Assembly (NCBI GenBank): GCA_015231405.1
Contig: JADGBR010000003.1
Coordinates: forward strand, 29,549 to 93,548
Direction of reading: 5' to 3'
DNA from: Candidatus Omnitrophota bacterium
Lineage (GTDB): Bacteria; Omnitrophota; Gorgyraeia; Tantalellales; Tantalellaceae
DNA: 64,000 nucleotides
Shown: positions 3 through 61,934 of the stretch, piece by piece
Numbering within the stretch: the stretch's first letter is position 1
Layout: every line of letters starts with the position of its first letter
Position numbers and translations under genes: made by a program
The notes under the pieces: model-generated
Database searches by the model: none
Told to the model about the DNA's origin: nothing
Seen by the model: the letters and a program-made list of their open reading frames with translations, nothing else

Positions 3-1100
3 GTGTACGACGATATTCATACGAGGGGGGTCAGGGACCTAAGGGACATCATCGTCGATAATATGCCGCCGGCAGAAGCGGAGGCGTATTTCCTGGACAG
101 TATAGAAAACGTTGCCAGGCAAAGCTTTTCGGACGGGGTGAGGGAAGTGGAGCTGAGATTTAACCCGTTCAAGGAAATGCTTTATACCGATCCCCTGACG
201 GGCGCAAAAGCCGATATCGGGAGCTATGGGATCATCCTTGACGATCTTCTCCGTAAACTTGACGATCGACTCTCGAAGCTTGAGGCTGAAGCCGATAAGG
301 TATTCGGGAAAGACAAAGGCCCGCACAGGGTTGTCTTTATGTTCTCGATAGGAAGGGACAGGCTCGAGGGTGACAGGTTTGTGAAAGGAGAATGGGAGAG
401 AAAATTCGCGATATTATCAGACCTGAAGGAGAAGTACGGGTTCGCGGCTTTTTACGGTGAAAGGTTGTCCGGTGTGGATATAGCCGGTATCGAGCCTTTC
501 GGTAAGGAACAAGGAGATACCCGGGAGACGATATCCGAAAGGGTCAGGGAAAGATTCCATCTTGATCAAATGGCGGTGATACTGAAGCGTCTTAAGGATG
601 CAGGGTACGCGATAACCACGCACCTTGGCTGCAGGTACGGCTCGAGCCCGAGGGACGACGTCATGGGGCACGCCGCCTTTGTCAAGGCCCACCTTGACGC
701 GTGGGGAGATGTCCTTGACAGGGTGGGGCACGGGAAAATATTTACGACCGGCAAGGTCTATTCCGAGAGCGTGGACGGCGCGGATTCGAAGTGGGCCGCG
801 TATGACGAGGCGACGGCCAAAGCGCTCGTTAAAGAGCTTAGGATGAAGGGTATTGCCATTGAGACATGTCCGCAGAAACTTGAGTCGCGGAGCGTTTACC
901 GCATGATGAGAGATCTCCCGAACGTTTCATGGATCGAAAAAGGCGTTAAGGTCGTATACGGGACGGACGGCTCTTACCTGAGCGGCGGGTGCACTCTGTC
1001 GCAGTGGATAACAAGGCTCATGCTGTCGTTCCCCGCCTCCGGAAGAAAATATTTCGGCACCGGCGACATGATGGAAACCGTATCAAGCGTGAAAAAATCC
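3..1100 (+). other. Adenosine/AMP-deaminase-like (metal-dependent amidohydrolase) domain, N-terminally truncated by the window edge.
   Basis: The motifs VREVELRFNPF, ITTHLGC, LDRVGHG, IETCPQKLESRS and VVYGTDGSY match the A_deaminase signature blocks (VEVRF, HAGE-like, RIGHG, CPxSN, TDDP). Confidence 0.6.
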
Positions 1101-4100
1101 GCGGATATTGAGGAGAATATAAACAAGTACTCCGCCGCGGCGTGGGAACATTTTTACAAGGCGGACAGGGAAGGAACTGGCACGGCACTTCTGGTGACTC
1201 CCAACGAATTTCTCAGGAAGACGATCGCTCTGTCGGGGGGTCTGCTGGAGATCAAAGACCCGTATTACATGAGGATGGTCTGCCGCCGAGTGGAAGAGAT
1301 CAGGGAAAAGAATTCGGCGGGGCTGCTTAATGAGCTCTCTGTATCTACGGGCCAGATGAGGGAACAGGTTTCAGAGAGGGCCAGGGGGTATCTGGAGAAA
1401 GGAGAACGAAAGTTCACCGCCGAACAGATCCTAAAGGATTACGAAAGGGTGATAAACAACCTTTTCATACTCCAGTCGGCCTTAATGTATCCCAAAGCCA
1501 TGCTGTGGATATTCCAGTCGTTGTACAGGGAGATGGAGGAGTTCAGACTGAAAAGCGAGTCGGAGAAAAAAGAGACGCCGTTCCTTATCCTCATATCCGC
1601 GACTGATCGTATCGAGTCGCTACGGAACTTTTTCCAAAGCCTTGTTGAGGAGGTAGATACTTTCAATTACGGCCTTACGCTCGAGCTTGGCGGGGACGGC
1701 TCTATCGTCAAGCGGACGGATAAGGTAACGGTCGCTATCATAGAGAACAGCTCTGACCCTCTAGTAGCGGTCCAGAACAGGGAACTTATAGCCGAATACC
1801 GGAATAAAGGGTTAAGGATCGTATATTACGGAGCCGATGAGAAGGTGAAAATAGTTGAAATGATACGAAAAAGGGAAGGGGAGAAAAGCCTTTATTACAG
1901 GTTCGGCATAACGCCGGAAGATCTCGGCCGGGACAAGGTGAAGGCCGTCACCGCCGGGATCAAGAACGCGGGATACAACGCCACGAGGAACTTTTCATTC
2001 GAGGTCGCCCGGGAATGTTTCTCGACCATGCCCGACGATTCCGTGTCGGTGCTCATCGACGATGACGAGATGCTTAATTCGCTCCTCGTGAGCGATGAAG
2101 AAGGAGTGAAGATCGAAAGGCCGTTCAGTTTTTTCCATAACGCCGACAGGTATTACAAGGACCCGGTCCTTGAAGTCCTTTCCGGGAATATCAGCGGTGA
2201 CCCGGCCATAGGCGTCGCCGAGATGCTTCACGGCAACCTGCGTGATCTGAAGGAGTTCCTTGAAAGGACCGCGCTAATGGCCCCGGGAGACGATTATACC
2301 AGAAAAATGTTCGAAGGCGCTTCCCAGGAGCTTTCGGAGAACGTGATGATCGAAAATTTTAACGATTACGGGCAACGGGCCACGTGGAGCGGAAAATCTC
2401 CGATGAGGAGAGGATGGGCTTTTCCCAGGGTGCCGCGGGAAGGCGAAGAACGGACCGTTGGGGCGCAGTTCAGGGCTTTCGCGGATGCGGCCGACCAGAT
2501 GTTCTTCGGGCACCAGGAGACGAGGCCCATAGGGTATTCGCCCGACAGCTACATGACAGACAGCGACAACGCGGTCGTACCTAAAATGGTTTGGTCATTT
2601 TTCGGAACGGGCGGGAACCTGATGCTCAGCAAGAAGCTTATCAATTACGCCGATATGACATGCATGCCAACCGGGAAATGGCGCAGGGAAGACGTCATGC
2701 TCGAGAAGCTTATCGAGGTGTTCTACACACCCGTTAACATGACTTTTCTCCCCGTCAGGCATTCAAGGCTTAAAACAGGGCACAGGATGGGGATAACCCG
2801 GAGAGATACCGGCGAACTGAGCTTCGTCCGGTTCCTGGGGAGCGCATATCACGGTTATATTTTCCAGCGGTTCGTCGAGAGGATATTCGATCTGGAGTAT
2901 ATTGGGTCAATGGAGGATTTTATAAGAGTGGCGACGAAGGCCTCGCTCGGGGAATACCCGGGATTTATGGAATGGTATCTCTCCGTCAAAAAGAGGAGAT
3001 ACGAGAACCTTAAACAATATCTGTCCGACCTTAAAGACATGGCTTTGGAAATGAGGGCGAAAGGGTTCTTCACGGAAAAAAAATACTGGTGGAACAACGA
3101 CCCTTCATACGCCCAGTCCGTGAGGGAGATGGAGATCATCGTGGACTCGATCATAGCCGATATGGACCCGGCCGGAAAAGACTACAGCGAGATGTTCGCT
3201 GAGCTACACAAAAAAACTGAGGACACTACCCTTGCCGACGAACGGAAGGTCGTTGACGAGATGAGAGAGTCGTACCCGCATATGCGCAATTACATGAGGG
3301 AACATCCGTATTCATATACCGACCTTAAAAGGACGGAAGAGATACTTTACAGGAGGTCGGCCAAGGCCGGCGTGAGGACGGTACAGGTCACGATCATGAA
3401 CGAGGCCGGCAGGATGGAACGGATAAGGTTACCGCTACATCTTCGCGGCGCGAGCCGTCTCATAAGCGTTTATATCGCGTCTTCCGTATATAACTTCCTC
3501 GTCCGAAACGGCGCCGGTGAAAAGATCTATATAGCCTGTGATGACGAGCAGGAAGCCAGAGGCGTGGTCAAAAGGGTCAAGAAAACGCTGGAGATATCAG
3601 GCCTCGATTTTACCGTAAGGGGCAACTATAACGTTAAGCTTGTTCCTGCCAGGCGCCGTGATCTAGCTGGGATAAGAGAGGAAGAGAGAACCAGGGAACG
3701 GGAACGCGGCCGTATTTTAAAGAACAGGAAACTCAAGGCCCCGGAAAAAGGCGTGTTCATGTGCCTGGACCTCGGGAAATCCTCGGCAAAGATACTGGTG
3801 CATGACGGGAACGCCGTGGTATATAGCGGAAAGAAGGAAGGGTCATTTTATTATAAACGTACTCCCGGTGACATAAAAAGAGAGATCGGCGTTATTGTAG
3901 ACGAAACTCTTACCGCCCTGGGATATGGTAGAGACAGTTTGAGGGGAGTAACTGTCCTTGTTCCCGATATCGTAGACAAGGCCGGGAATAAAGCCCTGTA
4001 CCTGAAAGGGGAAGACCTTCCGTTCCCGGCCATTGTCAGGCACGATTCCGAGGGGCACGCCGCTTATTTCAGGAATAAAGGCCTGGATAACTTTTATCTC

Positions 4101-7100
4101 CTCGCTTTGGGCACACACCCCGGCACGCAGGCCGTAATATTCGGTAAAACAGCGGATGAGCCGATGGAGATGTCGAGGTCGGTGGTATGTATAGACGGAA
4201 GGGAAAAGCCTGTCGAGCTCCGGGAGCTCTTGTCGACCCAGGCGGTGCTTGAGGAGGGCTTGTTCAAGGGCATTATCGACCATGCCGATAACGAGAGAAA
4301 GGACGAAGCGTTCGCCATCATGGCCCAAAAGGCGGAGGAAGGCGACGAGAGGGCATTATCTCTCCTTAACTATCTGGGTGAATACACGGCTATTCATCTA
4401 GTGAACATGGTGAGGCATATACGCTTCGATAAGGTTGTGTTTTCCGGAGGGATGTGCCGCGGGAAATTCGGTGAAATGCTGGCCGAGAATACCATGAGGT
4501 CGCTTAAAACGAGAGGTTTCGGATGGATAAAGCCGGTCCTCATGGGGGATGAGGATATGCAGCTGGCAGGGGCTCTTGGCGGGATATCTCTGGCCGAAGA
4601 ATACTGGATCGGGCCGGACGAGGACGCGAGGCGGCTCAAGGTATATCACAAGATGATCCTGTCGCTTAAGGACGACGGGGACGCGAGCAAATGGAAAGAT
4701 GTTTTTGACAGGTTCAAGGAAGAAAGCGGCGCAAAGCCCGGTGATTTCGAAAAGGTCAGGATGTGTTTTGAGCGGGATGGGGGTAAATATAACGAATTTA
4801 TTTTCCATCTGCCTTTGAAGATGGCCGGCGCCGAGAGGGAGATAGCCGCGAGATATCTATCCAGCTGGATCAATAAGTTCATCGTGTCCAGGGCCGCTAA
4901 GAAGGTAGTAATAGATACAGCGATAGAGGGCATGTTCAAAGAGATAGAAACGTCTTTCGATGCGGAGTATAACGACCCTAATTCGCAGGTGAGCCTTGCC
5001 AGGACGGTCGGCGAATACTGGGATTCAGGGTCGTTCAGGCTGGAACAATACGCCCAAGGGACAGACCTCGATATAGAGCCTTACATAATGGAAAAAGAGA
5101 CGGCCCTGAAACGCGATACGGCGATCAACAGGTCCGTTAAGGCCATCGGCATTAATGTAGGTAAATACAGGATAAAGATAAGCGTAGTCGAGATCATGGG
5201 GCAGGGGAGATATAAGCATATAGGTAAGATAAAGGACTTCAATACCTGGGAAAAAACGGATGACCGCTCCAGTTTCGATACGCTGTACACAAAGCTGATA
5301 AAAGGGGTAAGGGAAGTCCTGGCAGAGAACGGGCTTTCGGAAAGCGACGTTGACGGCATTGGGATAGCGGCCGCGACAGCCGTAAAGAACGGCCAGCCGC
5401 TTGGGCGTCCCATGGGATTCGCAAGGGGTTTTAACCGTGAGGCGGAGCTCGCCAAGCTCAAGGGCCTTAGAGCGAAGATGTCGGAAGATCTTAGCGGCCT
5501 ACCCGTATTCGTCCGGCACGACGGCGATGTCGAATGCCTAGGCATGGCCCGGTCAAAGGGGATAAGGAATCTTCTAGTGATGAAGTGCGGCAACACTCCG
5601 GGCGTAGGTTTCGTCGAGAATGACGGTAACCTGGCTGAGGGACTGAACGAGTTCGGAAAAGTGGTTACCGATATGGGGCGTGACGCCCTCGCCCACGATA
5701 AGACGGGTGTTAAAGGTGAGGTTGCCAGCTATACCGCGTGGGATGGTACATGCAAGGTGGCGAAAAAGATGGGTCTTTACGAAAAATATAATTTCGGGCC
5801 GGAAGATCCGGTGCCAGGGATTTTACAAGGATGGCTGAACTTGAGGACAGATTCGACTTTTAGCGAGCGTGAGGACGCGCGGAAAGTGTTCCTTCAAAGC
5901 GGAAGGGAAACCGGCAAGTTCGTTGTCGAGATGCTCGACCTGTATCCGATAGAGCATATAGGCGTGTCGGGTGGAGTATATTTCGGCGAGTCCGGAAAAG
6001 CCATGAAAGCCGGCATAGAGGAAATATTCAAGGAGAGCGGTCTCCTTGGAAAGATAAATATCATCATAGACAATTACGATATGGAAAAAATGAAATATAA
6101 CGTGACGCTCGGCGGCGCTTATCTCGTATATGACGCCGTAACGCTCGGCGACGGGGAGATCAAAGCGAAGGATTTGGACCACGCTTCGAGGCTTTTCGGG
6201 ATATCGCCGCGCATACTGAAGCTCAAGGCCCGGATAGCAGAATGGAAATGGGGTGGGAGGACCCGGACGGACGGAAGGCCGTCGGCGATAAGGGAACTTC
6301 TCGGCGAGAGCGCGTCGGACGAGCCCGCTGCCGAAGCCTGGTACGGGGCGCATCCCAAACTTCCAAGCCCGGTCGAGATATTCGGTTTAGATACGACTCT
6401 GGATAAGGTCATGGAACGCGTGTACGAGGTGGTGCTGGGCCCGGAAGTCGTCAAGAGGTTCGGCAAGGTTATGCCCATAATGTTCAAGTTCCTGGACGCG
6501 GCCGAATCCCTATCGATACAGTGCCATCCCGGGAAAGAACAAGCCAGGAGGCTCGCGAGGGAGCGCCCGGGAGTGTACGACGAATTCAATAAGCCTGAGG
6601 CTTTTGTCGCCTGTACTGATGAAGGTTTCAGCTCGCTCGGAGGGGTCCTCCCCATCGACGATTTTATAAAGGTCCTCAAATCTCATTTTCCTGATATCGA
6701 GACAGACTATGCCGCCGAAAAAGATAAAGCGGGATACGACCCCGCTCTATTCGTGAAGAAATACGTAAAGCTCGTGCTGGATAAAGGGAACGGGTTCGCG
6801 GACATAGTGATGCCCGAGCTTCTTAATCAGTATAACGCCAAGAACGGGGAGGTGCTGTACTCGCATGACGGCCATGTTAACGCGCTACTCTCCGGTTTTA
6901 TAGCGGAGATAGAGACGAATTCGGATAACACTTTACGCGCCGCCAAGACAGTGAAGGAAAGGGATATACCAAATTTCCTCGAGGCGGCGGACCTGACCCC
7001 GGCGAGGGAAGAGCTCAGAAAATTCAGGGAGACTGACGATCCGGCGGTAAAGAGCTGCATAACGACCGAAGCTTTCGCGCTGGACCTCGTGAGCCCGGGA

Positions 7101-11648: not shown

Positions 11649-11663
11649 ACCAATAGGCAGGAT

Positions 11664-21886: not shown

Positions 21887-21920
21887 ACTATTAGTATTTC
21901 AAAAAGTCAGACAAAGCGAG

Positions 21921-45272: not shown

Positions 45273-45342
45273 CCGCGGCAGCGAGACCGTGTCATAGTGG
45301 GACGACAGTCTGAACGGGGGACTATTACTTTTAGGAGGTTAT

Positions 45343-45771: not shown

Positions 45772-45779
45772 AGGCCGCG

Positions 45780-46687: not shown

Positions 46688-46692
46688 TAAAT

Positions 46693-46887
46693 ATGATCAT
46701 GATCAAATGTCGCAAGTGCGGATCGATAAGTTACTCTTCATATGACGGGGCGAAATGTGCATGCGGGGGGGTAAGTGAAGACGCTGAGGAAAAAGCTGTT
46801 ACAAATACATTGCCGCTAAAGGGGGAAAAAAACATAGGAATATTTTTCGGCGAGGTATTGGCTTTGATCAATATGATCCTGATCTAG
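46693..46887 (+). CDS. Small zinc-ribbon protein (64 aa).
   Basis: SD aagggg lies 8 nt upstream. The translation is MIMIKCRKCGSISYSSYDGAKCACGG... with a CxxC-x12-CxC motif. It lies directly upstream of the nuclease gene. Confidence 0.45.
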   Translation: MIMIKCRKCGSISYSSYDGAKCACGGVSEDAEEKAVTNTLPLKGEKNIGIFFGEVLALINMILI

Positions 46888-46912
46888 CGACCGCGAAAGG
46901 ATCGATCAGGAT
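46876..46912 (+). promoter_or_regulatory. 9-bp stem hairpin (atcctgatc / gatcaggat, 19-nt loop) overlapping the SD and start codon of the DUF2779-like gene.
   Basis: Read from the sequence. The stem's 3' arm includes the first two bases of the ATG (46911-46913), and the loop contains the SD aaagga. Confidence 0.35.
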
Positions 46913-48449: not shown

Positions 48450-48464
48450 AGGAGGATAACTGAT

Positions 48465-49664: not shown

Positions 49665-50316
49665 TCAGGGGATATGCTGTTTTATCTCTCTTCCCGACAG
49701 CCGGAGTACGGAATTTATCGGTGAGCTCATCAGGCATTTCAGCGATGATGATCATGATCTCATACTGGGTTTCGTGGGTTTCAATAACCTGGAGGAGAAG
49801 GAATATAAAAAATATGAGGTTGAGATACTGAAGAGGAGCGCGGGGTATAAATTCGGCTATGTCGGATTTGATCCCGGTATTAAGGTTCTGTTCGAGAGAA
49901 TGATGAAGGGGCTTTTCACCCCCGTAATAAATGGGGTGAAGGCCTATCGCATGAGCGGGGAGATGCGGGATCATTTTATCCGGAACTATTTGGCTAAACT
50001 AAAACGCGCGCGTGGGACTATCTGGGACCTGGGTGTTTACAGGAACGACAGCCCGGTCATGGAATGCCATGACGATCTTACCGCTATAACATTTTACGAT
50101 GAAAATGAGATCAATGCCGGGTTCCTGGATAAGATGATCGACCGGAACATATTGGCGAACTACGCTATCACGGAAAAAGCGCCGGAAAATTTCATATGCC
50201 CCGGATGCGGAAGACCGAGCATCGATCAGTACCTCGTAGTAGCGAAAAACTTCACGCCGTCTGGTGACAATTTCGTTTGCGGGAGATGCTATAATAAAAT
50301 ATCCGTGACAATATAA
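49648..50316 (+). CDS. Hypothetical protein (222 aa) with a C-terminal zinc ribbon; it overlaps the upstream gene by 17 nt.
   Basis: The ATG at 49648 lies inside the end of the DUF2130-like gene, which suggests translational coupling. The C-terminus is CPGCGRPS...CGRCYNK. Confidence 0.6.
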   Translation: MTWSADQGICCFISLPDSRSTEFIGELIRHFSDDDHDLILGFVGFNNLEEKEYKKYEVEILKRSAGYKFGYVGFDPGIKVLFERMMKGLFTPVINGVKAYRMSGEMRDHFIRNYLAKLKRARGTIWDLGVYRNDSPVMECHDDLTAITFYDENEINAGFLDKMIDRNILANYAITEKAPENFICPGCGRPSIDQYLVVAKNFTPSGDNFVCGRCYNKISVTI

Positions 50317-50499
50317 CGGATATCTCCAAGATATCGTTCACCGTGCCAGAAATACTCAGTTCTTTCCTGGGTCTCATAGCTAACGTCTAAAAAAAGTCTT
50401 AGATGTTACAAATCAATTGACTAAAATGCAAAAATAAGTTAGAATAATAAAATCCAAGAAAGCATAAAATGCAAAAAAGATAAATATCCCCGACTTATT

Positions 50500-52704: not shown

Positions 52705-53012
52705 TTATAGTTACCATAATGTCCATTTCGTGCGGTGGGACGGCAAGGTGCCGTACGAAGAATCCCATCTCCATCATGACAGCACCAAGGCTATCACAAC
52801 GTTATAGATAAAAAAGCAAGAAATAAGCTATTTAATATATTTACGCTATGGTGTATACTTGTAAATAGCAAAAGCGAATTTTGTCGTAACGTTAAACAAG
52901 AAATTAGCCTTTAAACAAATCCGTACCAAAAAATGCGAATATAAATACGAACGATTTGTTATATTAACTATAGCTAAAGAATTTTAAAAAGGATAAAAAA
53001 AGGGGGGAGATA

Positions 53013-56000
53013 ATGAATAAGCATCTTGTTTGTTTGAAAGGTATGGTAATTATTTTTACGTTGTTGGTATCAGCTACATTAGGGGTAGCATTTGCTGAGA
53101 ACGATATTCTTCAGGATTTTAAGAGTAATCTTGAAACTATTCATGGCATGAAGATAGACTTGGATAAAATCGTGGTCAATCCGGATTTTCCGGGTGGGAT
53201 ATTGGTCAGTTATTCGGACGAGATGACCAATTGGGCGATAGACGCCGTTTATTTGGCTGACGGGAAACTGGGACAGGTGCGTTTCGGGTCGCTGAATTCC
53301 AAAATTGCCATCGAGGTTACACAGTCGACATGGGCGCTCGATACCTGGAACGAGACAGTTCAGGAAGGGGAGTTTTACAGGGGGGATCCAGGGAAAAACA
53401 CCGTTACATTCGGAGTAGACCCGCAATCCGGGGAAATACGATTTTATTATAGCGCGCAATTCGGGTACGCTCCGGAGAAAATAGCGTGGGCAAGCCCGCT
53501 ACGGCTGGATGACCTGAGAGAGTTATTGGGGAGATTTTATCAAGTCAACGATATGGCGGAAGAGCTGACAGTGAAGTTGCGACAGTATCAGGCAGAGTTG
53601 TTGACGCTTGCCCCGGTAGAAGATAAGCTTGATCGGGCAAGCGAGGAGTATACGGTAATGTATAACGCGTATATCCGCTATGACGGGTCCCTTAGAGTGC
53701 AGTTCCCTGTAACTGATATCCAGTTGGCTGCCGCATGGCATCTGCCTAAAACAAAACGGCAAGAACTTATAAACCGCATCAATGCCGCGCTTGTCAATGA
53801 TCCTATCGACATAGAGGAACTCAAATTGCTTCTTAACGAAAATGTCATGGGAATAGAGGAATCCGTGGATTCATTTAACGGTATCCGAGATATGTTCTTA
53901 TCCGGGATCGAAGAGGTGAGACTGGCGATAAGGGGTATGGACGAAGTCAACGATATGGCCGCTGGTTTCAAGAAGGAAATAGAAGCGCTTTACGGAAGAG
54001 ATATTGACGGGCAGGCGATAAATATTGTCGATATAACAGAAACCGCCGAGGGTATTGAAGCTATGATCACGGTAACGGAAGATGATCTTTCTCTGCGTTT
54101 TAAGGTGGTTGTTAAAGGCGGGTCAATAACAGAGATAACATCCGAAAACAGCCACGGTGTAAGTTTTATGGATATCTGCATGTTTATCAGGCAGAGCGTG
54201 GCTGAAGGTATGCTCATAGATACCAAAGAAGCACGTATAATCGGTATAGGGGTAACTCCTGCCGGTGATTATGAGTTCCTGATCGAGGCCGGTGATTTAG
54301 AAGTTAAATGCCTATACAACGACGCGCCGAATGACAAATATATCATAACCTCCGCGTTGAGCAGATCGACCGGCGTGGATTATCTCGCAAAAGGAACTGA
54401 ATACTTTAAGGAAGTGTTCAACGGTGTGAATGGTCTGGCGGTCAGAGCTCATATGTTCCCGGGATACCCACAGATGGCACTTTTGTTCCAAGGCCCCAAA
54501 GGCGAGTCTTCTATAGGGATATGGGTCATGCTGGACTCTAAGGGCGGCGCGTACTGCACGGACGACCGCGACGGGAGGACATTGCCGGATAAGGCCCTAT
54601 CCATAAGAAAAGAGGTGGCCGACGGGTTAAAGATCGATATCAACGAAGTGCAGATAAACGGCATGGATGTGATGGCGTCCGGGGAATACATATTTTATGT
54701 GGATATGGCCGACGGGGAATACTCCTTTACCTATATATGGTCCGCCGACGGGTCGGGGATAAGGCTTGAATCCGTGCGCAATAACATTAGCGGCTTACAT
54801 GCAAGTGTAATATACGAAAATATCCGGATGGTTAACGGCTATGATCATCTTATGCCCATGCGTATCATAGATTCTGAGAATGGCGGTATACTTGTCTATA
54901 TGAATTATTCGTTCATACCTGGAGATGACCCTGCCGGACCCAATCACATCGAGTTGACCGGGCTCTATTACCCCGGGGGGGCAACTTTGCGCATTCTCGG
55001 AGCGGTGGACCCGTTAAAACTGGCTACGGGCGGATATTGCATACCGGAGATGCTTTTAGCGCGAAATGCCGTTCGGGAGATGTTAAATATTGATCCATCC
55101 GGAATAGCTATAGGTGAAGTAGTCCAGGGCCCCGAGGATACTTACCGTATATCGGTGAAACCTGATGGTGCGGGTTTCCCGGAGAGTATTATTGTGACCG
55201 TTAAGGATGGGGCTATCGAAGATATAAATAACGATGAAAAATACGGCGTAAGTTTTCCCGAAAAATGCCTGTTCATCAGAGAGCAGGTAGCCGCGGGCCT
55301 ATCCATAGGTATAGATAAGGTGTCTATAAACGGCATAGGAATGACCGCGGCGGGAGATTATGAGCTCCTGGCCGACGCCAATGACCTGGAAGTGAAATGC
55401 CTATACAACGACGCGCCGAATGACAGATATATCATAACTTCCGCGTTGAGCAGATCGACCGGCGTGGATTATCTCGCGAAGGGGACTGATTACTTTAAGG
55501 AAGTGTTCAACGGTGTGAATGGGCTGGCGGTCAGAGCTCATATGTTCGCCGGAACTGATCAGATGGCACTTATATTCCAAGGCCCCAAAGGCGAGTCTCC
55601 TATCGGGATATGGGTAGTGCTAGACTCTAAGGGCGGCGCGTACTGCACGGACGACCGCGACGGGAGGACAATGCCGGATAAGGCCCTATCCATAAGAAAA
55701 GAGGTGGCCGACGGGCTGATGATGGATATCAAAGAGGTGTATATCAACGGTATGAACGTCAAGTACGGGGGAGATCATGAGTTTTTAGTGGATGCCGGCG
55801 AGTATTCGTTTGTTTATATTTGGCCGGGTGACGGGTCAGGAATAAGGATGGTAGAAGCGTTTAACAACCGTACCGGAAAAGACCTTCTGAGTAAGGCTGT
55901 TGAAGCGTTGAGCGACGTATTCAACCCGACAAGCTATGTGTTGTCGTACTGGGGAAGCGGAGAGGGTTGCATGGGCTTTGCGTTCAGGCTCCCTGACGGG

Positions 56001-59000
56001 CCTGGAGTGAAGCTGAACGTTAGCGTAGAGACCGGTGAGCTTATGCCCAATTTTAGCGAGATGGTAAATGTCGTAATGGCCGCGCGAAATGAAGTGGCAC
56101 AGTCCATGGGAGATGAAATAGCGGATGTTCACGTGGACGGAGCGGCTGAGGAGTATGACCATGAAGCCGGCGTATATGTCGTTACCAAACTCACAATAAC
56201 GGCAAAGGAATACGTCTTTACGTATGTTGACAAGAAAGACGGTCAAGGAATGAGGATAGAAGCGGTGTATAACAAGAATACCGGCCTGGAACTACTGGGT
56301 AAGGCTATTGAACAGCTGAAGAACTTAATGAACCCGACAAGTTATGAGCTTTCATATTGGGGCACGGGAGAGGGTTGCATGGGCTTCGCGTTCATGCTCC
56401 CTGACGGCCCCAAAGTGAAGTTGAATATAAACGCCGAGACCGGCGAGCTTATGCCTGACCTTGACAATATGGCCTCGGTGATCATGGGGGTAAGAGAGGA
56501 AGTCGCGAAGCTTGCGGAAATTGACATTTCTCTAACCCATGTCGACGGAGCGGTCGAGAACTATGATGATGTAACCCGTCTTTACGTTGTCAGCAATCTG
56601 ACCATAACAACGGATAAATATATTTTTACTTACGAGATCGCCCAAGACGGGTCCGGGATGAGACTGGTAGAACGCGTCGACCGGCCGGCCCCGTTGTCGC
56701 AGGTGAACGCCGGTAAAGAAGCTTTGGCGGCGCTCCTCCGCTCGCCGAACGGCGCCGAAGATATAGTTTTCATCGGCACGGACCCGGATAACGCCTTGAA
56801 GCTAAAATATCAGTATGCTCAAGTGACTGTTTATCTTAAGGTCATTCCGGAAGAAGGAACATATACTAAAAATATAAAGTACAGGGTAGATTTTCCCGCC
56901 GGCATGAGAGAATCGATAGAAGCCGCTTATGCCTCCGCGATAGTGCGCCTTGAGGACGTTACTTACTGGGGGATCACAGGCATGAACGGGGATCTCTCCG
57001 AAGATCTCTGGATACCGGGATATTCTGTCACGATCAACGCGGAAAAGGGAGCGATAGTATATAATTGCGGGATCCGGAACGATATGACCGTTGATCGGGA
57101 AGCGTCGAATTATGTCTTTACGAGGCCTGAAAACGCGGAGGATTCCGTGATATTAACTTTCAAGGGAGAGGAAATAATGGCATGGGGCAGGATCCGGCTA
57201 CTGCCATTAACTCTCTCGGATAAAGAAACCGGGAAGACACTGGTCTCATTCCGTCATGTATTTGACAATAGCGGCGCGGTGGCATGGACTATCGCCGAAT
57301 ACTACCAGGGCGAGAACGTAATACTTACGCGCAGCGAAAAAGGCGCGATCGATCCCGTGGACATAGGGAGATTAGGCGAGAATTGCGCCTACGCGCTCCT
57401 GGCCATAGAAAAAATGGCGTATAACACTCATCCAGACCTATCTTCATTCGAGCTATTGAACGTGAAGGAAGAAGGTGACAATGTCATTGTCTCTCTCAGA
57501 ATGTCTCTGGGCAGGGATAGCGTCTTCGGGACATTTTCGGTGAGTAAGATCAGCCTGGTAGTCACTCCGGCAGATAATTATCCGGACTTGAAATACGGCA
57601 TTGATTACGTATACGACGAAACCGGCAGGGTCACGATCACGAGGCTGACGACGCCTCAAGGCGAAGAACTTACCATAATAGGTAAGCTTGAACCTTTGGT
57701 CCTTGTCAGGGGAGAATACCCGGTCTCAAAAATCCTTGAAGCAAGGCGTGTTCTGGCCGAAGAGCTCAGCCAGAACGCGAGCTCGATAAATATCGGCGAA
57801 GTCTGGGAATTTGGCGGTAGAACCCTCGTGAGTCTTGTGCCGACCGCCATTAGTATCGGTTCAAATTTGATCGTCGGGGTAAAGGATACGCCTTCGGAGG
57901 ATACCGACGGGGACGGAAAGCTTGACGCCAGCGAAGACCTGGACGGCGACTGGAAGCTTGACGTGAACGAGGACCTTGACGGCGACGGGAATCTGGACAT
58001 AGACGAGCAGGCCCTCGCTGCAGCGGAGTTCTCGACATGGACGGTGAATGGGCGGTTCGACGTGGATAATGATGGCCGTATGGATATTAACGAGGACATT
58101 GACGGCGACGGGCATCTGGACTTATATGAAGATTTAGACGATGACGGCATCCTGGATATAGAAGAGGATGTTAACGGTGACGATGTTCTTAATGGTCCCG
58201 GGATAAAGGCCGAGATTTTGGATCCTTCTGTCCTGTCCAGGGCCATTAAAATCGCCAGGGAACGCGCGAAGAGCCTGAACATAGAATTGGGTAAGATCCA
58301 GAAAATTGAAACGATAGGGCAAGACGAGGTACATATATGTTATGACTCCGATCTCGGCGATGTCATTACCAATGTGCGCCTCGACGGTAACGGCCTGGCG
58401 ATCCTCGCGCGATTCGATCTAAGGCTGAATGGAATGAACCGGACAATATATTTCGAGGAGGTTAACGGAAAAATGCTGGCCCAGGGGATAGCGGACTCCT
58501 CGAGCAATAAAACGCTGGTGAAATTAAAGTATCAATACTTCTCGAATACCGGAGAGATCTACCTTACGGAATTGATCTTCAGGGACGGGAAAAGGCTTGT
58601 CTTCCATGGCGAGGTCGATCCCTTCGCCCTGGCCAGGGGCGAATATCCGCTGGATGCCATTAAGGTAGCGCTCAGAAAGGTCGCGGAAACCATCGGCCAT
58701 ACGGACGCGAGCACTATACAGATAAAGGCATGGAGCGATAATAACGGTGAATTTGACCTGGAACTGGTGACGACCGAGAACGCGGCCCATATGAATTTCG
58801 CGGTAAAAATCACGAAGAGCGATAACGGCGGGTATGAGGTAGTGTTCCCCGACAAAATGATAGAGGCCATAGACCGGACGCGCGGACTTTGCCTATGGCA
58901 GGTCCTTGATCCTGTAAGAGTGCATGACATAAGGATACGTGAGAGCGAGGCGTATGTCTGGTGGGAAACGAAGTATGGCGATAAGGATGTCAATCTGACG

Positions 59001-61934
59001 GTAACTTACGATATCGCTCATGATACCGGGCTTGTCGATCTCATCGCGAGTATAGACGCGAAAGGGTTATTAAACGCGTACGATTTCATGAATACGCTTC
59101 TTGCCGCGTACGGGCCTTTCGGGGCGGTACCCGGAACGAGGTTATACACGCTCATTAACACGATAAACCAGACCGACGCGTACGGGAATGAGCTGGGAGC
59201 TGAGGAGTATAAGGAAAAGCTGCTGGCAGCCGCCGGGGCGTTCGGAGACCGGGACCTTGTTGTCCGTGAGATGAGCGTCATTGTCACGGACGCGAAGCTT
59301 TTCAATTACAACGCCGTGATCACGTATGAACAGCATGAGTCTGGCAGGCTTGTCCCTGACAGGATAGAGGATGGCCATGGCAATGTTCTTGTCAGTTTCA
59401 GCTACGAGATGGTAGAGAAGTGGGATAAAGAAAACAACGCGTACGTGTGGGATATGATTACCACCGTGACATTCAATAACGCGAGCCCTTATGCCGATCC
59501 TTGTGACTCCGGGCCTATTACCGTGGCGGGAGTGCCGGAGGGTATTATGAACCTTGTGACCAATAAACTCACTGATACCTGGCTATTCTGGGTATTTGCC
59601 AGGAACGAGGTGGATGATCTGTATCAGTCATATTTCCTGAGGGAGCCGAACGTCGAGATGGTGTCCTACTGGGTGGACGCGGCGCGTGAACGCGGCCTAA
59701 CACGCCTCTTATCCGACCTTGGGACCGGCTTGGATAATATCAGATCGCTTGCGGGCGTAAGCGCTAGAGGCGAGGATATTGACGGTGACGGGAATCTTGA
59801 CATAGACGAGCAGGCCCTAGCTGCCGCGGAGTTCTCGACATGGACGGCGAACGGGCGGTTCGACGCGGATAATGACGGCAATATGGACAACAACGAGGAC
59901 ATTGACGGCGACGGGCATTTAGACGCCATGAATGAGGATATCGACGGAGACAGGAATTTCGATACGGGTGAGGATACTAACCATAACGGCGTTCTTGATC
60001 CGGGAGAGGATATCGACGGGGACGGAGTGCTTGACCTGTCCGAGGACCTGGACGGTGACGGGAATCTTGACATAGACGAGCAGGCCCTAGCAGCTTCGGT
60101 GTTCTCTACATGGACGGCTAACGGGAAATTCGATGTGGATAATGACGGCATAACGGACTCCAACGAGGACATTGACGCTGACGGGCATTTAGACGCCGTG
60201 AATGAGGATATCGACGGCGATCTCCATTTCGATTCCGGGGAATACGCTCAGCCAAATGCCGGATGGCCGTGTACGGACCGAGACGCGCTCATGATAGTGG
60301 CGCATTTCAGCGATATTATGGACAAAGGGGCAAGAGACCTCTCCGGGGACAATATCGTCGATAACTGCGACCTTACGATCTCAGGGCTCGTTTATGAGCT
60401 TGCTATCCACTACCGTGACTCTCTTAGCGCGGATATGCTCCGCATATTCGACGCCGACATGAACGGCGCGGTCGAGCGCACCGATGCGGACCTGGCCGCT
60501 CTTAAGATAGCTTACGGGGACGGAAGAACATTAGGTAAGATAAAGGAATTCGCGGACATTTTGGCGGAGGATCCTCTGGGCGGGCTGGATAAAGAGAGGG
60601 CGGGCGAGATATATGATCTGGCAATAAAATATTCATCGATCCTGGATGAAAGCGTCCTCGCCAAACTCGACCGTGACGGCGACCGGTGTATTACGGAAGC
60701 TGACAAAGAACGGTTTATTTCAGTTATAGACCGGGCCGTAGAAGAGATCGCTCTCGTCAGGGAGGGAACGTCCCGTATATCGGCAGATCAGCTGGACCTT
60801 AACGGTGACGGAGGCGTTGATATGTACGATTACAACAATGCGCAAATGGTCCGCAAATACGCCGAGGTATATTTTAATTATTTGGATGAGGAAACCGCGG
60901 CGCTATTGACGGCGAACCCGCTGAACGTTGTGCTTGAAAGGATCAAGATGGCGCTTGCCGGGATCAGGACGGTCGTCGATTATGTGAAAAAGATGACTGA
61001 CGTGCTGTCCGGTGTGAACGGGGACATAGCTTCCGTTGTCGGTGAGAACGGGTTCATTGATAAGTTATACGAACTCGCTATCCGGTACGAGGGTTATCTT
61101 CCGAGGGAATCATTCCAGGCCCTGAACCGCGACGGGAATACGGTCCTGGATATTACGGATAAAGAAGCCGTCATCGCCGAGATAAACTCGATGGCCGGCC
61201 AGCGCGACGCAAAAAAGTCTTTCGACGTGACGAGGGCCGATGGGACGAAGGAAACATATACAATGGCGACGGTCGGTGAGTCCACGAAAACCCTTATAAC
61301 GCAGAAGGTCAATACTGACGGGACATATGTCGTTTTTGAAACGTATCACAAGGGGACCGGCACCGATAACCTGAGCCTGAAATACAGTTCGGTCGATAAT
61401 AAATTACTGGCTCAGTATAAGAAATATTCTAACGGCAGGGTATCGGGAGCCCTTTACACCGACCCGGATGAGTTCGGGAACGTCTATTACCACTTCGCAA
61501 ACGAGGATTATTACTCTACCTCGGAAAAAGACGCGCCTTTTGTGGGCAGGATCGATATGATACAGAGGGCCTCCGCCGATGAGGCGGGCGCCATATCGTA
61601 CAAGATCTACTACAAAGGCGACAGCGGCGTGGCCAGATCGGTTTACGCTTATTCGAAATTGTCCTTCAGCGGAACTGTTTACATGTATGAATATGACGAA
61701 AATAACAAGCTCGTCAAAGTGAAAGATTTCCTGAACAATAAAGAGCTTGAGATCGGAGCGGCGGATATGGCGACATCTTCGGCACAACTCGATAAAAAGA
61801 AAGATATGGTCCAGCAGGTAATGGAGGATGAGATGAACGCCATGAAAACCGTCCAGAACATACTTGTCAAGAACAAGGCTTCGGAAAACCTGAAAGCCCA
61901 GCTGATGAACGTCAAAAGCAAGGAAGGGATATGA
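53013..61934 (+). CDS. Giant (2973 aa) secreted protein with duplicated modules, Asp-rich DxDGD calcium-binding repeats (thrombospondin-type-3-like) and dockerin-like EF-hand motifs.
   Basis: SD ggggggag lies upstream of the ATG at 53013. The signal peptide is MVIIFTLLVSATLGVAFA. The ORF runs to the TGA at 61932-61934. Motifs are given in the sub-features. Confidence 0.85.
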   Translation: MNKHLVCLKGMVIIFTLLVSATLGVAFAENDILQDFKSNLETIHGMKIDLDKIVVNPDFPGGILVSYSDEMTNWAIDAVYLADGKLGQVRFGSLNSKIAIEVTQSTWALDTWNETVQEGEFYRGDPGKNTVTFGVDPQSGEIRFYYSAQFGYAPEKIAWASPLRLDDLRELLGRFYQVNDMAEELTVKLRQYQAELLTLAPVEDKLDRASEEYTVMYNAYIRYDGSLRVQFPVTDIQLAAAWHLPKTKRQELINRINAALVNDPIDIEELKLLLNENVMGIEESVDSFNGIRDMFLSGIEEVRLAIRGMDEVNDMAAGFKKEIEALYGRDIDGQAINIVDITETAEGIEAMITVTEDDLSLRFKVVVKGGSITEITSENSHGVSFMDICMFIRQSVAEGMLIDTKEARIIGIGVTPAGDYEFLIEAGDLEVKCLYNDAPNDKYIITSALSRSTGVDYLAKGTEYFKEVFNGVNGLAVRAHMFPGYPQMALLFQGPKGESSIGIWVMLDSKGGAYCTDDRDGRTLPDKALSIRKEVADGLKIDINEVQINGMDVMASGEYIFYVDMADGEYSFTYIWSADGSGIRLESVRNNISGLHASVIYENIRMVNGYDHLMPMRIIDSENGGILVYMNYSFIPGDDPAGPNHIELTGLYYPGGATLRILGAVDPLKLATGGYCIPEMLLARNAVREMLNIDPSGIAIGEVVQGPEDTYRISVKPDGAGFPESIIVTVKDGAIEDINNDEKYGVSFPEKCLFIREQVAAGLSIGIDKVSINGIGMTAAGDYELLADANDLEVKCLYNDAPNDRYIITSALSRSTGVDYLAKGTDYFKEVFNGVNGLAVRAHMFAGTDQMALIFQGPKGESPIGIWVVLDSKGGAYCTDDRDGRTMPDKALSIRKEVADGLMMDIKEVYINGMNVKYGGDHEFLVDAGEYSFVYIWPGDGSGIRMVEAFNNRTGKDLLSKAVEALSDVFNPTSYVLSYWGSGEGCMGFAFRLPDGPGVKLNVSVETGELMPNFSEMVNVVMAARNEVAQSMGDEIADVHVDGAAEEYDHEAGVYVVTKLTITAKEYVFTYVDKKDGQGMRIEAVYNKNTGLELLGKAIEQLKNLMNPTSYELSYWGTGEGCMGFAFMLPDGPKVKLNINAETGELMPDLDNMASVIMGVREEVAKLAEIDISLTHVDGAVENYDDVTRLYVVSNLTITTDKYIFTYEIAQDGSGMRLVERVDRPAPLSQVNAGKEALAALLRSPNGAEDIVFIGTDPDNALKLKYQYAQVTVYLKVIPEEGTYTKNIKYRVDFPAGMRESIEAAYASAIVRLEDVTYWGITGMNGDLSEDLWIPGYSVTINAEKGAIVYNCGIRNDMTVDREASNYVFTRPENAEDSVILTFKGEEIMAWGRIRLLPLTLSDKETGKTLVSFRHVFDNSGAVAWTIAEYYQGENVILTRSEKGAIDPVDIGRLGENCAYALLAIEKMAYNTHPDLSSFELLNVKEEGDNVIVSLRMSLGRDSVFGTFSVSKISLVVTPADNYPDLKYGIDYVYDETGRVTITRLTTPQGEELTIIGKLEPLVLVRGEYPVSKILEARRVLAEELSQNASSINIGEVWEFGGRTLVSLVPTAISIGSNLIVGVKDTPSEDTDGDGKLDASEDLDGDWKLDVNEDLDGDGNLDIDEQALAAAEFSTWTVNGRFDVDNDGRMDINEDIDGDGHLDLYEDLDDDGILDIEEDVNGDDVLNGPGIKAEILDPSVLSRAIKIARERAKSLNIELGKIQKIETIGQDEVHICYDSDLGDVITNVRLDGNGLAILARFDLRLNGMNRTIYFEEVNGKMLAQGIADSSSNKTLVKLKYQYFSNTGEIYLTELIFRDGKRLVFHGEVDPFALARGEYPLDAIKVALRKVAETIGHTDASTIQIKAWSDNNGEFDLELVTTENAAHMNFAVKITKSDNGGYEVVFPDKMIEAIDRTRGLCLWQVLDPVRVHDIRIRESEAYVWWETKYGDKDVNLTVTYDIAHDTGLVDLIASIDAKGLLNAYDFMNTLLAAYGPFGAVPGTRLYTLINTINQTDAYGNELGAEEYKEKLLAAAGAFGDRDLVVREMSVIVTDAKLFNYNAVITYEQHESGRLVPDRIEDGHGNVLVSFSYEMVEKWDKENNAYVWDMITTVTFNNASPYADPCDSGPITVAGVPEGIMNLVTNKLTDTWLFWVFARNEVDDLYQSYFLREPNVEMVSYWVDAARERGLTRLLSDLGTGLDNIRSLAGVSARGEDIDGDGNLDIDEQALAAAEFSTWTANGRFDADNDGNMDNNEDIDGDGHLDAMNEDIDGDRNFDTGEDTNHNGVLDPGEDIDGDGVLDLSEDLDGDGNLDIDEQALAASVFSTWTANGKFDVDNDGITDSNEDIDADGHLDAVNEDIDGDLHFDSGEYAQPNAGWPCTDRDALMIVAHFSDIMDKGARDLSGDNIVDNCDLTISGLVYELAIHYRDSLSADMLRIFDADMNGAVERTDADLAALKIAYGDGRTLGKIKEFADILAEDPLGGLDKERAGEIYDLAIKYSSILDESVLAKLDRDGDRCITEADKERFISVIDRAVEEIALVREGTSRISADQLDLNGDGGVDMYDYNNAQMVRKYAEVYFNYLDEETAALLTANPLNVVLERIKMALAGIRTVVDYVKKMTDVLSGVNGDIASVVGENGFIDKLYELAIRYEGYLPRESFQALNRDGNTVLDITDKEAVIAEINSMAGQRDAKKSFDVTRADGTKETYTMATVGESTKTLITQKVNTDGTYVVFETYHKGTGTDNLSLKYSSVDNKLLAQYKKYSNGRVSGALYTDPDEFGNVYYHFANEDYYSTSEKDAPFVGRIDMIQRASADEAGAISYKIYYKGDSGVARSVYAYSKLSFSGTVYMYEYDENNKLVKVKDFLNNKELEIGAADMATSSAQLDKKKDMVQQVMEDEMNAMKTVQNILVKNKASENLKAQLMNVKSKEGI
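54150..54790 (+). repeat. Module copy A of a recent intragenic duplication.
   Basis: About 340 nt (54295-54630) are roughly 93% identical to 55384-55720. The encoded peptide is EVKCLYNDAPNDKYIITSALSRSTGVDYLAKG...CTDDRDGRTLPDKALSIRKEVADGL. Confidence 0.8.
55230..55860 (+). repeat. Module copy B of the same duplication.
   Basis: See copy A. The encoded peptide is EVKCLYNDAPNDRYIITSALSRSTGVDYLAKG...CTDDRDGRTMPDKALSIRKEVADGL. Confidence 0.8.
57895..58200 (+). repeat. Asp-rich calcium-binding repeat block 1 (DxDxDG, TSP3/EF-hand-like).
   Basis: The peptide is DTDGDGKLDASEDLDGDWKLDVNEDLDGDGNLDIDEQALAAAEFSTWTVNGRFDVDNDGRMDINEDIDGDGHLD. The 150-nt unit at 57975-58125 recurs at 59776-59925 and 60049-60200. 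Confidence 0.7.
59770..60240 (+). repeat. Asp-rich calcium-binding repeat block 2, holding two further copies of the 150-nt unit.
   Basis: The peptides EDIDGDGNLDIDEQALAAAEFSTWTANGRFDADNDGNMD... and DLDGDGNLDIDEQALAASVFSTWTANGKFDVDNDGITD... show high nucleotide identity between copies. Confidence 0.7.

Follow-up and report, generated by a model that had tools for sequence, protein, structure and literature searches.

We analyzed a stretch of 64,000 nucleotides of Candidatus Omnitrophota DNA (hereafter the window), in which four very long open reading frames (ORFs), named here G1 to G4, follow one another on the forward strand. The results showed that the window is almost certainly a stretch of an Omnitrophota chromosome coding for four very large multidomain proteins that are unrelated to one another. 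Sequence comparison further showed that G3 is a member of a conserved Omnitrophota family of proteins of 3–7.5 thousand amino acids (aa), which share a collinear core of ~3 thousand aa. The four ORFs are as follows.

G1, 3-11648, forward strand: at least 3881 aa; the ORF is open at the left window edge and its N-terminus lies outside the window
G2, 11664-21461, forward strand: 3265 aa; GenBank MBF0215924.1, HQL30_02900
G3, 22010-42865, forward strand: 6951 aa; GenBank MBF0215926.1, labelled 'AAA family ATPase'
G4, 53013-61934, forward strand: 2973 aa; GenBank MBF0215936.1, HQL30_02960

A sequence-only reading of this DNA had reported four very long ORFs on one strand occupying about 51 kb. The ORF listing returned the same coordinates and sizes, all on the forward strand, and the computed total of 51,222 nt amounts to 80% of the window. 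Shuffling the window 100 times gave stop-free runs of at most 349 codons, and the log10 probability of 6951 codons without a stop is about -163; the lengths of G1–G4 are therefore beyond chance. Moreover, the GC content at the three codon positions is alike in all four ORFs (GC1 0.53-0.56, GC2 0.36-0.38, GC3 0.58-0.63), and this uniform pattern indicates that they are coding sequence. GC skew and AT skew are positive throughout the window. Tandem Repeats Finder (TRF) and a repeat finder revealed no long near-identical DNA repeats in the window, the best internal repeats being copies within G4 that are 71-86% identical. Collapse or expansion of repeats during assembly, a concern raised by the sequence-only reading, is therefore unlikely. 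The possibility that the giant ORFs are artefacts, arising from chimeric assembly, from repeat collapse, or from genes that were fused or pseudogenised and lack stops by chance, draws on two observations: the source is a metagenome-assembled genome (MAG) of the short-read era, and G1 and G2 lie in one frame with a single TAA between them, where one sequencing error could merge or split the two. However, three to seven thousand stop-free codons cannot arise by chance, codon-position GC is uniform and near-identical repeats are missing, G3 is collinear over ~2,900 aa with independent assemblies of 6414-7493 aa, and the TAA stands between two family signatures described below, a tail at the end of G1 and a leader motif at the start of G2. 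We consider an artefact exceedingly improbable.

The assignment to Omnitrophota was confirmed. G2, G3, G4, and a DUF2130 protein encoded between G3 and G4 match GenBank proteins of an Omnitrophota MAG exactly (MBF0215924-MBF0215936, on a contig of 178,336 bp), and an exhaustive protein search retrieved G3 itself at 100% identity. All named homologues of G3 are from Omnitrophota; one of them is a 'secreted protein' of 3635 aa from Candidatus Omnitrophus magneticus. The tetranucleotide signature of the window was weak but concordant, with an Omnitrophota locus ranking first of 69 loci from many phyla (r=0.67). No paper found in the literature names the locus tags or accessions of these proteins. 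Chunked all-against-all BLASTP detected no similarity among G1–G4, the only matches being repeats within G3 and within G4, which ruled out the idea that the four are paralogues. The description of the locus as a tandem array holds in that the genes share a strand within 62 kb, but their real order is G1-G2, a ferredoxin gene on the reverse strand, G3, 10 kb with about nine ordinary genes, and G4. The four genes lie in at least three transcription units and form neither one operon nor one paralogous array.

To define the G3 family, an exhaustive HMMER search was performed with G3 aa 1-1200, which gave 58 matches, 27 of them at E<1e-30 and many of them proteins of 3-7.5 thousand aa. BLASTP showed that the core of G3 (aa ~190-3060) is collinear at 28-38% identity with proteins of 6414-7493 aa; its relatives include P0069 (7410 aa), P0066 (6421 aa), P0016, P0026 (7493 aa), and P0019 (7258 aa), and the alignments to P0069, P0066, P0016, P0026, and P0005 cover 2,200-2,935 residues. 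Three Omnitrophota fragments are collinear with G3 aa 526-2969 at 37-46% identity, and two family members have been named 'MoxR-like ATPase' by JGI. The following modules were located in G3, all on the forward strand.

22010-22132: leader followed by the motif LAVTSMF at aa 35-41 (hydrophobicity scan and motif search)
23015-23128: SprT/Wss1-like minimal zincin, aa 336-373, with HEMVH at 366 (Pfam SprT-like, E=8e-5, 22.8 bits against a cutoff of 25.6)
23627-25339: conserved gluzincin-like metallopeptidase module, aa 540-1110, with HEIIH at 650 and Glu 669 (motif conservation)
26954-27454: candidate vWA domain, aa 1649-1815, with a DVSGS MIDAS-type motif (Pfam VWA, 22.8 bits against a cutoff of 23.8)
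27587-27643: one predicted transmembrane (TM) helix, aa 1860-1878, between vWA and the ATPases (hydrophobicity scan)
28418-28831: first AAA_5 (MoxR/dynein-type) ATPase, aa 2137-2274 (Pfam AAA_5, E=5e-23)
29627-29932: second AAA_5 ATPase, aa 2540-2641, with Walker A GDQSAGKS (Pfam AAA_5, E=7e-10)
31997-41899: NHL/beta-propeller array of ~3,300 aa, aa ~3330-6630 (Pfam NHL, E=2e-25, plus SGL, Lactonase, SBBP, and others)
41915-42862: conserved C-terminal domain, aa 6636-6951, with 32% identity over 316 aa to the C-terminus of P0016

Read from its sequence, the core has the order leader, SprT-like zincin, gluzincin-like module, linker, vWA, TM helix, and two AAA_5 domains. In the gluzincin-like module, H650, E651, H654, and E669 are invariant across 12 sequences, an HExxH motif plus a downstream Glu ligand. 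The linker between this module and vWA is of low complexity and rich in G, K, and Q. Two observations on relatives agree with this arrangement: PF00092 is found in G3 orthologues, in P0002 as a precomputed annotation, and both P0002 and P0003 have a hydrophobic segment at the position equivalent to G3 aa 1860-1878. Beyond the core, the propeller array consists of divergent internal repeats (26-56% identity by BLASTP) and varies between lineages, being absent or different in P0016 and P0068, while other family members carry different, unannotated sequence. The C-terminal domain has no Pfam match.

We also scanned metagenomes for related loci. An alignment of the AAA region of G3 (A1) gave no match, and a further alignment (A3) retrieved five loci carrying G3-type giant ORFs. 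The genes upstream of these ORFs code for a MiaB-like radical SAM enzyme, a DEAD helicase, an alcohol dehydrogenase, an acyl-CoA dehydrogenase with an electron-transfer flavoprotein, and an RlmI-like methyltransferase. Synteny with other Omnitrophota giant-gene loci, which the sequence-only reading had proposed to look for, is thus not conserved; G3-type genes elsewhere adjoin unrelated housekeeping genes, which means that the grouping of G1 to G4 is not conserved.

Although G1–G3 are unrelated in overall sequence, short signatures recur at their ends. At the N-terminus, L[AS]xxSxF stands right after the leader, within residues 30-41, in G2, in G3, and in O8, a 734-aa protein encoded upstream of G4; its background frequency is 5 of 2414 ORFs from unrelated loci. 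At the C-terminus, G1–G3 share a tail in which Pro is followed at a distance by [AQ]A-COOH, in G1 and G3 in the form LP-x23/24-A.

11766-11786, forward strand: leader motif of G2, aa 35-41
22112-22132, forward strand: leader motif of G3, aa 35-41
50587-50607, forward strand: leader motif of O8, aa 30-36
11568-11645, forward strand: C-terminal tail of G1, ...LPESYKMSMALIEEFNELASKALVAA, LP-x24-A-COOH
21399-21458, forward strand: C-terminal tail of G2, ...KPAKMDVESLRPLYFAQIAA
42788-42862, forward strand: C-terminal tail of G3, ...LPVVPLVGDMYRKYLDYRQRVLTQA, with which the conserved C-terminal domain ends

A common variant of the leader motif in the G3-module family is [ST]xL[AS]P, and 12 of 33 family N-termini have L[AS]P after the leader, compared with 4% of controls. 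All four metagenomic G3-type ORFs with visible N-termini carry the leader motif (CLSPTSSF, NPLASRSG, and STLSPW twice, at L082, L083, L085, and L086). As for the tail, Ala is the last residue in 16 of the 25 family members that have 2500 aa or more, compared with 10.6% of 1040 control ORFs; [LIVF]P-x(21-24)-A-COOH occurs in G1, G3, and 6 of these 25 members but only 4 of the 1040 controls, and P-x(10-24)-[SQAK]A-COOH in G1, G2, G3, and 10 of the 25, compared with 2.3% of the controls, these counts referring to a motif defined after the data were viewed and to a phylogenetically non-independent family sample. The tail is found neither in G4 nor in the small genes of the window (0/7 other window proteins for the last pattern). 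Two truncated ORFs upstream of metagenomic G3-type genes end in ...IDIAA and ...FILPLRRLDANRIGALNRLIAEYIEAAA.

A globular domain shared by these termini was looked for and rejected at both ends. Smith-Waterman scores of the N-termini of G2, G3, and O8 against shuffles gave z<2, and hhalign gave a probability below 1% for a C-terminal domain common to G1, G2, G3, and O8, leaving in each case the short pattern alone. The terminal signatures are therefore short linear motifs. Being amphipathic and not hydrophobic, the tail differs from sortase or exosortase signals; it may resemble HlyA-type secretion tails or ssrA -LAA degrons.

The leader motif and LP-x23-A tail shared by G1–G3 and the wider family suggest some common handling, be it sorting, processing, or turnover. 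A bolder proposal, which we regard as doubtful, is that the leader [ST]xL[AS]P / L[AS]xxSxF and the tail LP-x(21-24)-[SQAK]A-COOH mark an unrecognised superfamily of Omnitrophota proteins of 3-7.5 thousand aa, G1–G3 included, that is handled by a dedicated sorting, processing, or quality-control pathway. In another reading, G1–G3 could be substrates of a dedicated pathway that reads the C-terminus, such as a type I secretion-like ATP-binding cassette (ABC) exporter, a C-terminal processing protease, or a ClpXP-type degron, with the LP-x23-[SQAK]A tail as its functional key. The enrichment of the tail and of terminal Ala over controls and the truncated ORFs ending in -AA speak for such a pathway, as do the C39-like domains, with a possible link to type I secretion, in larger Omnitrophota giants (bioRxiv 10.1101/2023.11.21.568195). 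However, the N-terminal leaders and TM helices of G2 and G3 are unlike those of classical type I secretion substrates, RTX repeats are missing and the window holds no genes for an ABC transporter, a membrane fusion protein (MFP), or TolC, hhalign found no C-terminal domain common to the G1, G2, and G3 families, and the post hoc definition of the motif and the non-independence of the sample also count against it. We judge this reading unlikely.

G1 and G2 are both sequence-orphan multi-enzyme polypeptides whose domains, as assigned from sequence, are of cytoplasmic type. The visible translation of G1 opens within an adenosine-deaminase-like region, and the following features were assigned, all on the forward strand.

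720-992: adenosine-deaminase-like, tentative, G1 aa 240-330 (Pfam A_deaminase, E=3e-4, 20.4 bits against a cutoff of 27)
4320-4505: ROK/sugar-kinase-like, tentative, G1 aa 1440-1501 (Pfam ROK, 22.7 bits against a cutoff of 22.9)
6213-7268: type I phosphomannose isomerase, catalytic and cupin domains, G1 aa 2071-2422 (Pfam PMI_typeI_cat, E=3e-19, and MPI_cupin_dom; PDB 5nw7/1pmi, E about 4e-17)
10410-10826: PRK/uridine-kinase-type P-loop kinase, G1 aa 3470-3608 (Pfam PRK, 26.4 bits, above the cutoff of 22; Walker A GMVGAGKS; PDB phosphoribulokinase, E=0.002)
11664-11786: G2 leader, hydrophobic at aa 9-27, followed by LSPGSRF at aa 35-41 (hydrophobicity scan and motif search)
13569-14369: block of ~7 predicted TM helices, G2 aa 636-902 (Kyte-Doolittle scan)
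14472-15821: phosphate acetyl/butyryl-transferase-like, directly after the TM block, G2 aa 937-1386 (Pfam PTA_PTB, E=2e-13; PDB 7vg9 phosphate butyryltransferase, E=2e-16; the N-terminal part scores 19 bits)
16368-16679: first GNAT domain, G2 aa 1569-1672 (Pfam Acetyltransf_1, E=3e-13)
17070-17246: second, weak GNAT-like region, G2 aa 1803-1861 (Pfam Acetyltransf_1, 15.5 bits, below cutoff)
18735-18977: third GNAT-like region, G2 aa 2358-2438 (Pfam Acetyltransf_7, E=4e-5, 24.5 bits against a cutoff of 27)

Word-indexed k-mer searches of 5.8 billion proteins found no homologue of G1 aa 1900-3099 or of G2 aa 1-1000. The final ~170 aa of G1 have homologous counterparts at the C-terminal ends of P0027 and P0043, the latter a 'secreted protein' of Ca. 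Omnitrophus magneticus, and both of these belong to the G3-module family. In G2, ~600 aa without a detectable domain lie between the leader and the TM block, and the enzyme-rich part is the C-terminal 2,300 aa. Pfam detected no adhesion module in the visible 3881 aa of G1 or in G2. A 48-aa JGI peptide, P0062, is the representative of the 90%-identity cluster of G2, a peculiarity of the clustering through which searches limited to representatives may miss long proteins.

The spacing of 15 nt between G1 and G2 reported earlier was confirmed, and the suggested operon is plausible: the gap is short, it contains the Shine-Dalgarno-like stretch AGGCAGGA before the G2 ATG, and a convergent ferredoxin gene ends the unit. 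G1 and G2 are in the same reading frame with a single TAA and five codons between them (11646-11666), and one base change would fuse the two, giving a product longer than 7,150 aa. As G1 ends in the family tail and G2 opens with the family leader, we consider the two to be separate genes and the TAA a genuine boundary.

G4 is an acidic protein (pI 4.4) that starts with a classical signal peptide (...GVAFA|EN), after which a Kyte-Doolittle scan found no TM helix, and it has no Pfam match above cutoff, no PDB sequence match, and no detectable enzyme. Its upstream region is AT-rich, with a strong ribosome-binding site, GGGGGGAG. Its features, on the forward strand where a strand applies, are these.

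53847-56708: seven copies of an ~80-aa repeat, aa 279-1232 (jackhmmer, alignment A2; copies 28-59% identical)
57900-58157: first cluster of DxDxDGxxD motifs, aa 1630-1715 (regular-expression search; TRF 36-nt repeat at 57906-58007)
59775-60194: second cluster of DxDxDGxxD motifs, aa 2255-2394 (regular-expression search; DNA repeat family D1)
60657-60839: EF-hand/dockerin-like, sub-threshold, aa 2549-2609 (Pfam Dockerin_1, 14.3 bits against 22.9; EF-hand_7, 15.1 bits)
61941-61982, no strand: perfect hairpin with a 19-bp stem, a 4-nt loop, and no T-tract, 7 nt after the G4 stop codon

The ~80-aa repeat was modelled as one helix and a five-stranded meander (AF2, pLDDT 87.6). It had no match in Pfam or among PDB profiles and no significant Foldseek match against the PDB, the best being LolA/OspA at E=0.09, which makes it a candidate new repeat family. 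The two clusters comprise 14 calcium-type DxDxDGxxD motifs by regular-expression count.

We combined these features into a model in which G2 and G3 span the inner membrane. By Kyte-Doolittle scan, the predicted numbers of TM helices are ~7-8 in G2, 1-2 in G3, at most 1 in G1 (a single doubtful hydrophobic segment in the visible 3881 aa), and none in G4 after the signal peptide. The leaders of G2 and G3 would send their N-terminal parts across the inner membrane by the Sec route; as each protein combines a leader with an odd number of TM helices (7 in G2, 1 in G3), both would adopt an N-out/C-in topology. The zincin-linker-vWA head of G3 and the domain-free N-terminal region of G2 would then lie outside the inner membrane, where the zincins and vWA of G3 may serve in proteolysis and adhesion, either at the envelope or at a host interface. 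The phosphotransacylase, the GNATs, and the AAA+ domains, which depend on ATP, acetyl-CoA, or acyl-phosphate, would stay in the cytoplasm, where their substrates are, so that G2 and G3 would be tethers across the membrane, linking an exported head to enzymatic or ATPase activity inside the cell. For G4 the model predicts full secretion, as a surface or adhesin-type protein stabilised by calcium, and G1 would probably be cytoplasmic or anchored through its N-terminus. Since the enzymes of G1–G3 use ATP, acetyl-CoA, or sugar phosphates and the scan places them in the cytoplasm, most of the mass of G1–G3 is probably not extracellular and the proteins are probably envelope-anchored.

On balance, the identity of the locus together with this model is the explanation we favor, with somewhat better than even confidence; the topological and functional model on its own is tentative, and we hold it to be possible rather than probable. 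Several points weigh against it. The topology comes from a Kyte-Doolittle scan rather than a dedicated predictor, and for proteins of this kind different methods give conflicting TM predictions (West-Roberts et al., 2023, bioRxiv 10.1101/2023.11.21.568195). With a single TM helix in G3, its ~3,300-aa NHL propeller region would be cytoplasmic, an unusual location for such arrays in bacteria, and a missed helix would reverse this. The membrane would also separate vWA from the MoxR ATPases, although the two normally work together. In addition, the ROK, A_deaminase, VWA, SprT, second and third GNAT, and Dockerin calls are below the Pfam gathering scores, and the N-terminus of G1 lies outside the window.

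The sequence-only reading had attributed enzymatic and adhesion-type modules to every protein, along with a signal peptide or membrane block, and had proposed an extracellular or envelope-associated apparatus. Leaders are indeed present in G2–G4, but G1 has only the doubtful segment and no adhesion module, G2 has enzymes without adhesion modules, and G4 has no enzyme. Likewise, anchoring in the envelope is supported, but the enzymatic parts are predicted to be cytoplasmic and no result shows that the four genes form one apparatus. The strongest form of that proposal, in which G1–G4 together make up one extracellular or envelope apparatus encoded by an operon-like cluster for attaching to and attacking a host or prey cell, is favored by the position of the four genes on one strand within 62 kb, by the leaders of G2, G3, and G4, and by the adhesion-type modules of G3 and G4 (vWA, NHL, calcium-binding repeats); the tail common to G1–G3 and the leader motif common to G2, G3, and O8 also make some common handling likely. 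However, the four proteins are not paralogous, the opposite-strand ferredoxin gene and 10 kb of unrelated genes interrupt the series, and G3-type genes elsewhere have unrelated housekeeping neighbours. Co-conservation is also lacking, with G1 (aa 1900-3099) and G2 (aa 1-1000) having no detectable homologues, and the enzymes are of cytoplasmic type. Finally, Pfam and NCBIfam searches found no secretion, pilus, or glycoside-hydrolase genes in the window, which is the flank signature reported for giant genes. A single apparatus is accordingly improbable.

Between G2 and G3, the earlier description of an upstream region of G3 with a ferredoxin gene and a long palindrome was borne out, with the addition of a sigma-70-like site matched by consensus.

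21558-21725, reverse strand: 2x[4Fe-4S] ferredoxin, 55 aa, convergent with G2 and divergent from G3 (NCBIfam FdxA_fam, 85.9 bits, above the cutoff of 65)
21822-21886, no strand: perfect palindrome with 24-nt arms and a 17-nt spacer, unique in the window, 35 nt upstream of the G3 promoter-like site
21921-21949, forward strand: sigma-70-like site TTGACA-17-TAAACT, a consensus match alone, 60 nt upstream of the G3 ATG

The G3 start lies 285 nt from the divergent ferredoxin gene. The only Rfam match in the window, to mir-2574, falls on the palindrome and is a spurious hairpin artefact (45.9 bits against a gathering score of 90); the palindrome may be an operator or form a hairpin on either transcript, that of the ferredoxin gene or of G3. 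No tRNAs were found in the window.

The 10 kb between G3 and G4 (43011-52704; Pfam, NCBIfam, and ORF listing) hold ordinary genes.

within 43011-52704: O4, a protein with TM and DUF6973 regions (domain search)
45343-45771: CBS protein (domain search)
45780-46226, reverse strand: NUDIX hydrolase (domain search)
46684-46887: Zn-ribbon peptide (domain search)
46911-48449: DUF2779 protein (E=1e-38)
48465-49664: DUF2130 protein, GenBank MBF0215933.1, adjoining the DUF2779 gene (E=2e-70)
49648-50316: O7, an unknown protein (ORF listing)
50500-52704, forward strand: O8, 734 aa, with a leader, LATRSIF at aa 30-36, and a weak S-adenosylmethionine (SAM)-methyltransferase-like region

A defence island at 43-52.7 kb was considered and rejected: PADLOC gave only two weak partial matches, LmuB at 21 bits and PDC-S07 at 24 bits, the LmuB-like one falling on the DUF2130 protein.

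Further elements surround G4. The hairpin after its stop codon could be a terminator or an RNA-stabilising hairpin. A 30-nt element, GCAARGTGCCG..GAAG..TCCCATCTCC, occurs in three copies bracketing G4 where none is expected by chance: one copy 240 nt upstream of G4 (52743-52772, forward) and an inverted pair downstream (62348-62377, reverse, and 62456-62485, forward). These could represent a repeat like the REP (repetitive extragenic palindromic) or MITE (miniature inverted-repeat transposable element) type, or the trace of an insertion of G4 as a cassette. The ~640 nt between the hairpin and a downstream deaminase gene (61983-62626) contain nested inverted repeats (62097-62233, 62130-62190, and 62337-62496); neither an Rfam match nor a credible gene was found there, a 205-aa ORF at 62007-62624 having no family match and looking spurious, and the region may be structured RNA or repeat debris.

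The deaminase gene (62627-63064) codes for a CDA-fold protein of 145 aa (Pfam dCMP_cyt_deam_1), with a C-terminus like that of yeast Fcy1 and other cytosine deaminases. Its identity to genes from at least 10 phyla is 73-81%, among them genes of Ignavibacteria, Geobacter, Bacteroidota, Pseudomonadota, Omnitrophota, and an archaeal MAG, a pattern of unusually high conservation or frequent transfer. The gene is uninformative as a taxonomic marker. None of the Omnitrophota deaminase loci shows giant-gene synteny.

Two surveys allow the locus to be compared with known giant genes. Omnitrophota genes for proteins of more than 30,000 aa, with many TM helices, SecA_DEAD, and often C39 or S8 peptidases, were described as 'Archaeovorin' and 'Dockerin-type' (West-Roberts et al., 2023, bioRxiv 10.1101/2023.11.21.568195), and a catalogue of proteins of at least 10,000 aa distinguished multi-enzyme, tandem-repeat (including NHL and TSP3), and dockerin classes; most long Omnitrophota proteins in it were sequence-unique, and 94% of the catalogue had a signal peptide and/or TM helices (Nielsen & Lui, 2026, bioRxiv 10.64898/2026.06.07.730766). 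The earlier view of G1–G4 as giant genes of the Omnitrophota kind is right as to architecture, which is like that of the published classes, but with 2,973-6,951 aa they fall below the thresholds of both surveys (at least 10 and more than 30 thousand aa).

Compared with the catalogue of Nielsen & Lui, G1 and G2 are alike in having several enzyme Pfams with none dominating (GNAT, ROK, and sugar-phosphate enzymes, the class also including methyltransferase) and are sequence-orphan like most of its proteins. The C-terminal half of G3, dominated by NHL and propellers, is like the repeat class, and G4 recalls the dockerin/TSP3 class in architecture. The leaders of G2–G4 and the internal TM segments of G2 and G3 likewise resemble the catalogued topologies with a signal peptide and TM helices or with a signal peptide only. 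The locus differs in length and in its flanks, which lack the reported type II secretion system/pilus and GH2 genes. Moreover, the text of Nielsen & Lui does not contain 'AAA', 'von Willebrand', or 'motif', and the zincin-vWA-TM-2xAAA_5 core is not described there; neither of the two preprints mentions the terminal motifs. Archaeovorins share with G1–G4 the Omnitrophota origin, membrane association, and mixed enzymes, AAA_5 being among their domains. In contrast, none of the four window proteins has a SecA Pfam match at E<=0.01, their lengths are 2,973-6,951 aa (G1, at least 3,881), and no C39 or S8 peptidase was found near their N-termini, G3 having zincin-type HExxH modules instead. The DxDxDG and dockerin-like repeats of G4 recall the Dockerin/TSP3 type, but the Dockerin_1 (PF00404) score is the sub-threshold 14.3 bits and no TSP3 match (PF18884/PF02412) was found at E<=1.

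The invariant HExxH...E of the G3 module is that of gluzincins, the thermolysin-like clan MA(E) (M1, M2, M3, M4, M32, and M36). In chaperone pairs of MoxR (AAA_5) ATPases with vWA proteins, and in eukaryotic midasin, dynein-related AAA_5 domains and a MIDAS-type vWA domain belong to one functional unit; classical MoxR systems consist of separate proteins of 300-600 aa. G3 similarly joins AAA_5 domains with a candidate MIDAS-type vWA, but it fuses vWA and two AAA_5 domains within a protein of 7 thousand aa, with a predicted TM helix between them, two zincins before, and a propeller array after. Giant RTX adhesins secreted by type I systems, such as LapA, SiiE, and MpIBP, have 3-9 thousand aa. 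The window proteins are like them in size, in the calcium-binding extender-like repeats of G4, and in the conserved extreme C-terminus of G1–G3. They differ in having no RTX nonapeptide GGxGxD repeats (no HemolysinCabind match), in the leaders of G2–G4, and in the absence of ABC, MFP, and TolC genes from the window, and the adhesin-like G4 is the one without a C-terminal tail. Classical type I secretion is a poor fit to proteins with leaders and TM helices, with no RTX repeats, and with no transporter genes nearby in the window.

The locus thus holds mid-size members of a kind already known from Omnitrophota, and the proteins are already in GenBank. What the analysis adds is the G3 core family, the gluzincin-like module, the candidate novel 80-aa repeat, and the terminal motifs. 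How very long Omnitrophota proteins are exported, whether they act whole, and what they do is a recognised puzzle. The proteins described here are tractable examples of 3-7 thousand aa below the size cut-offs of both surveys, and the G3 core, with its gluzincin module, vWA, and two MoxR-type ATPases, offers testable parts. If the proposed superfamily is real, its terminal motifs would be the first concrete sequence handle on the targeting of such enormous proteins and would explain why G1, G2, and G3 sit together. Should the motifs hold across the phylum, the handling of giant proteins would become a question that can be searched for and tested by experiment.

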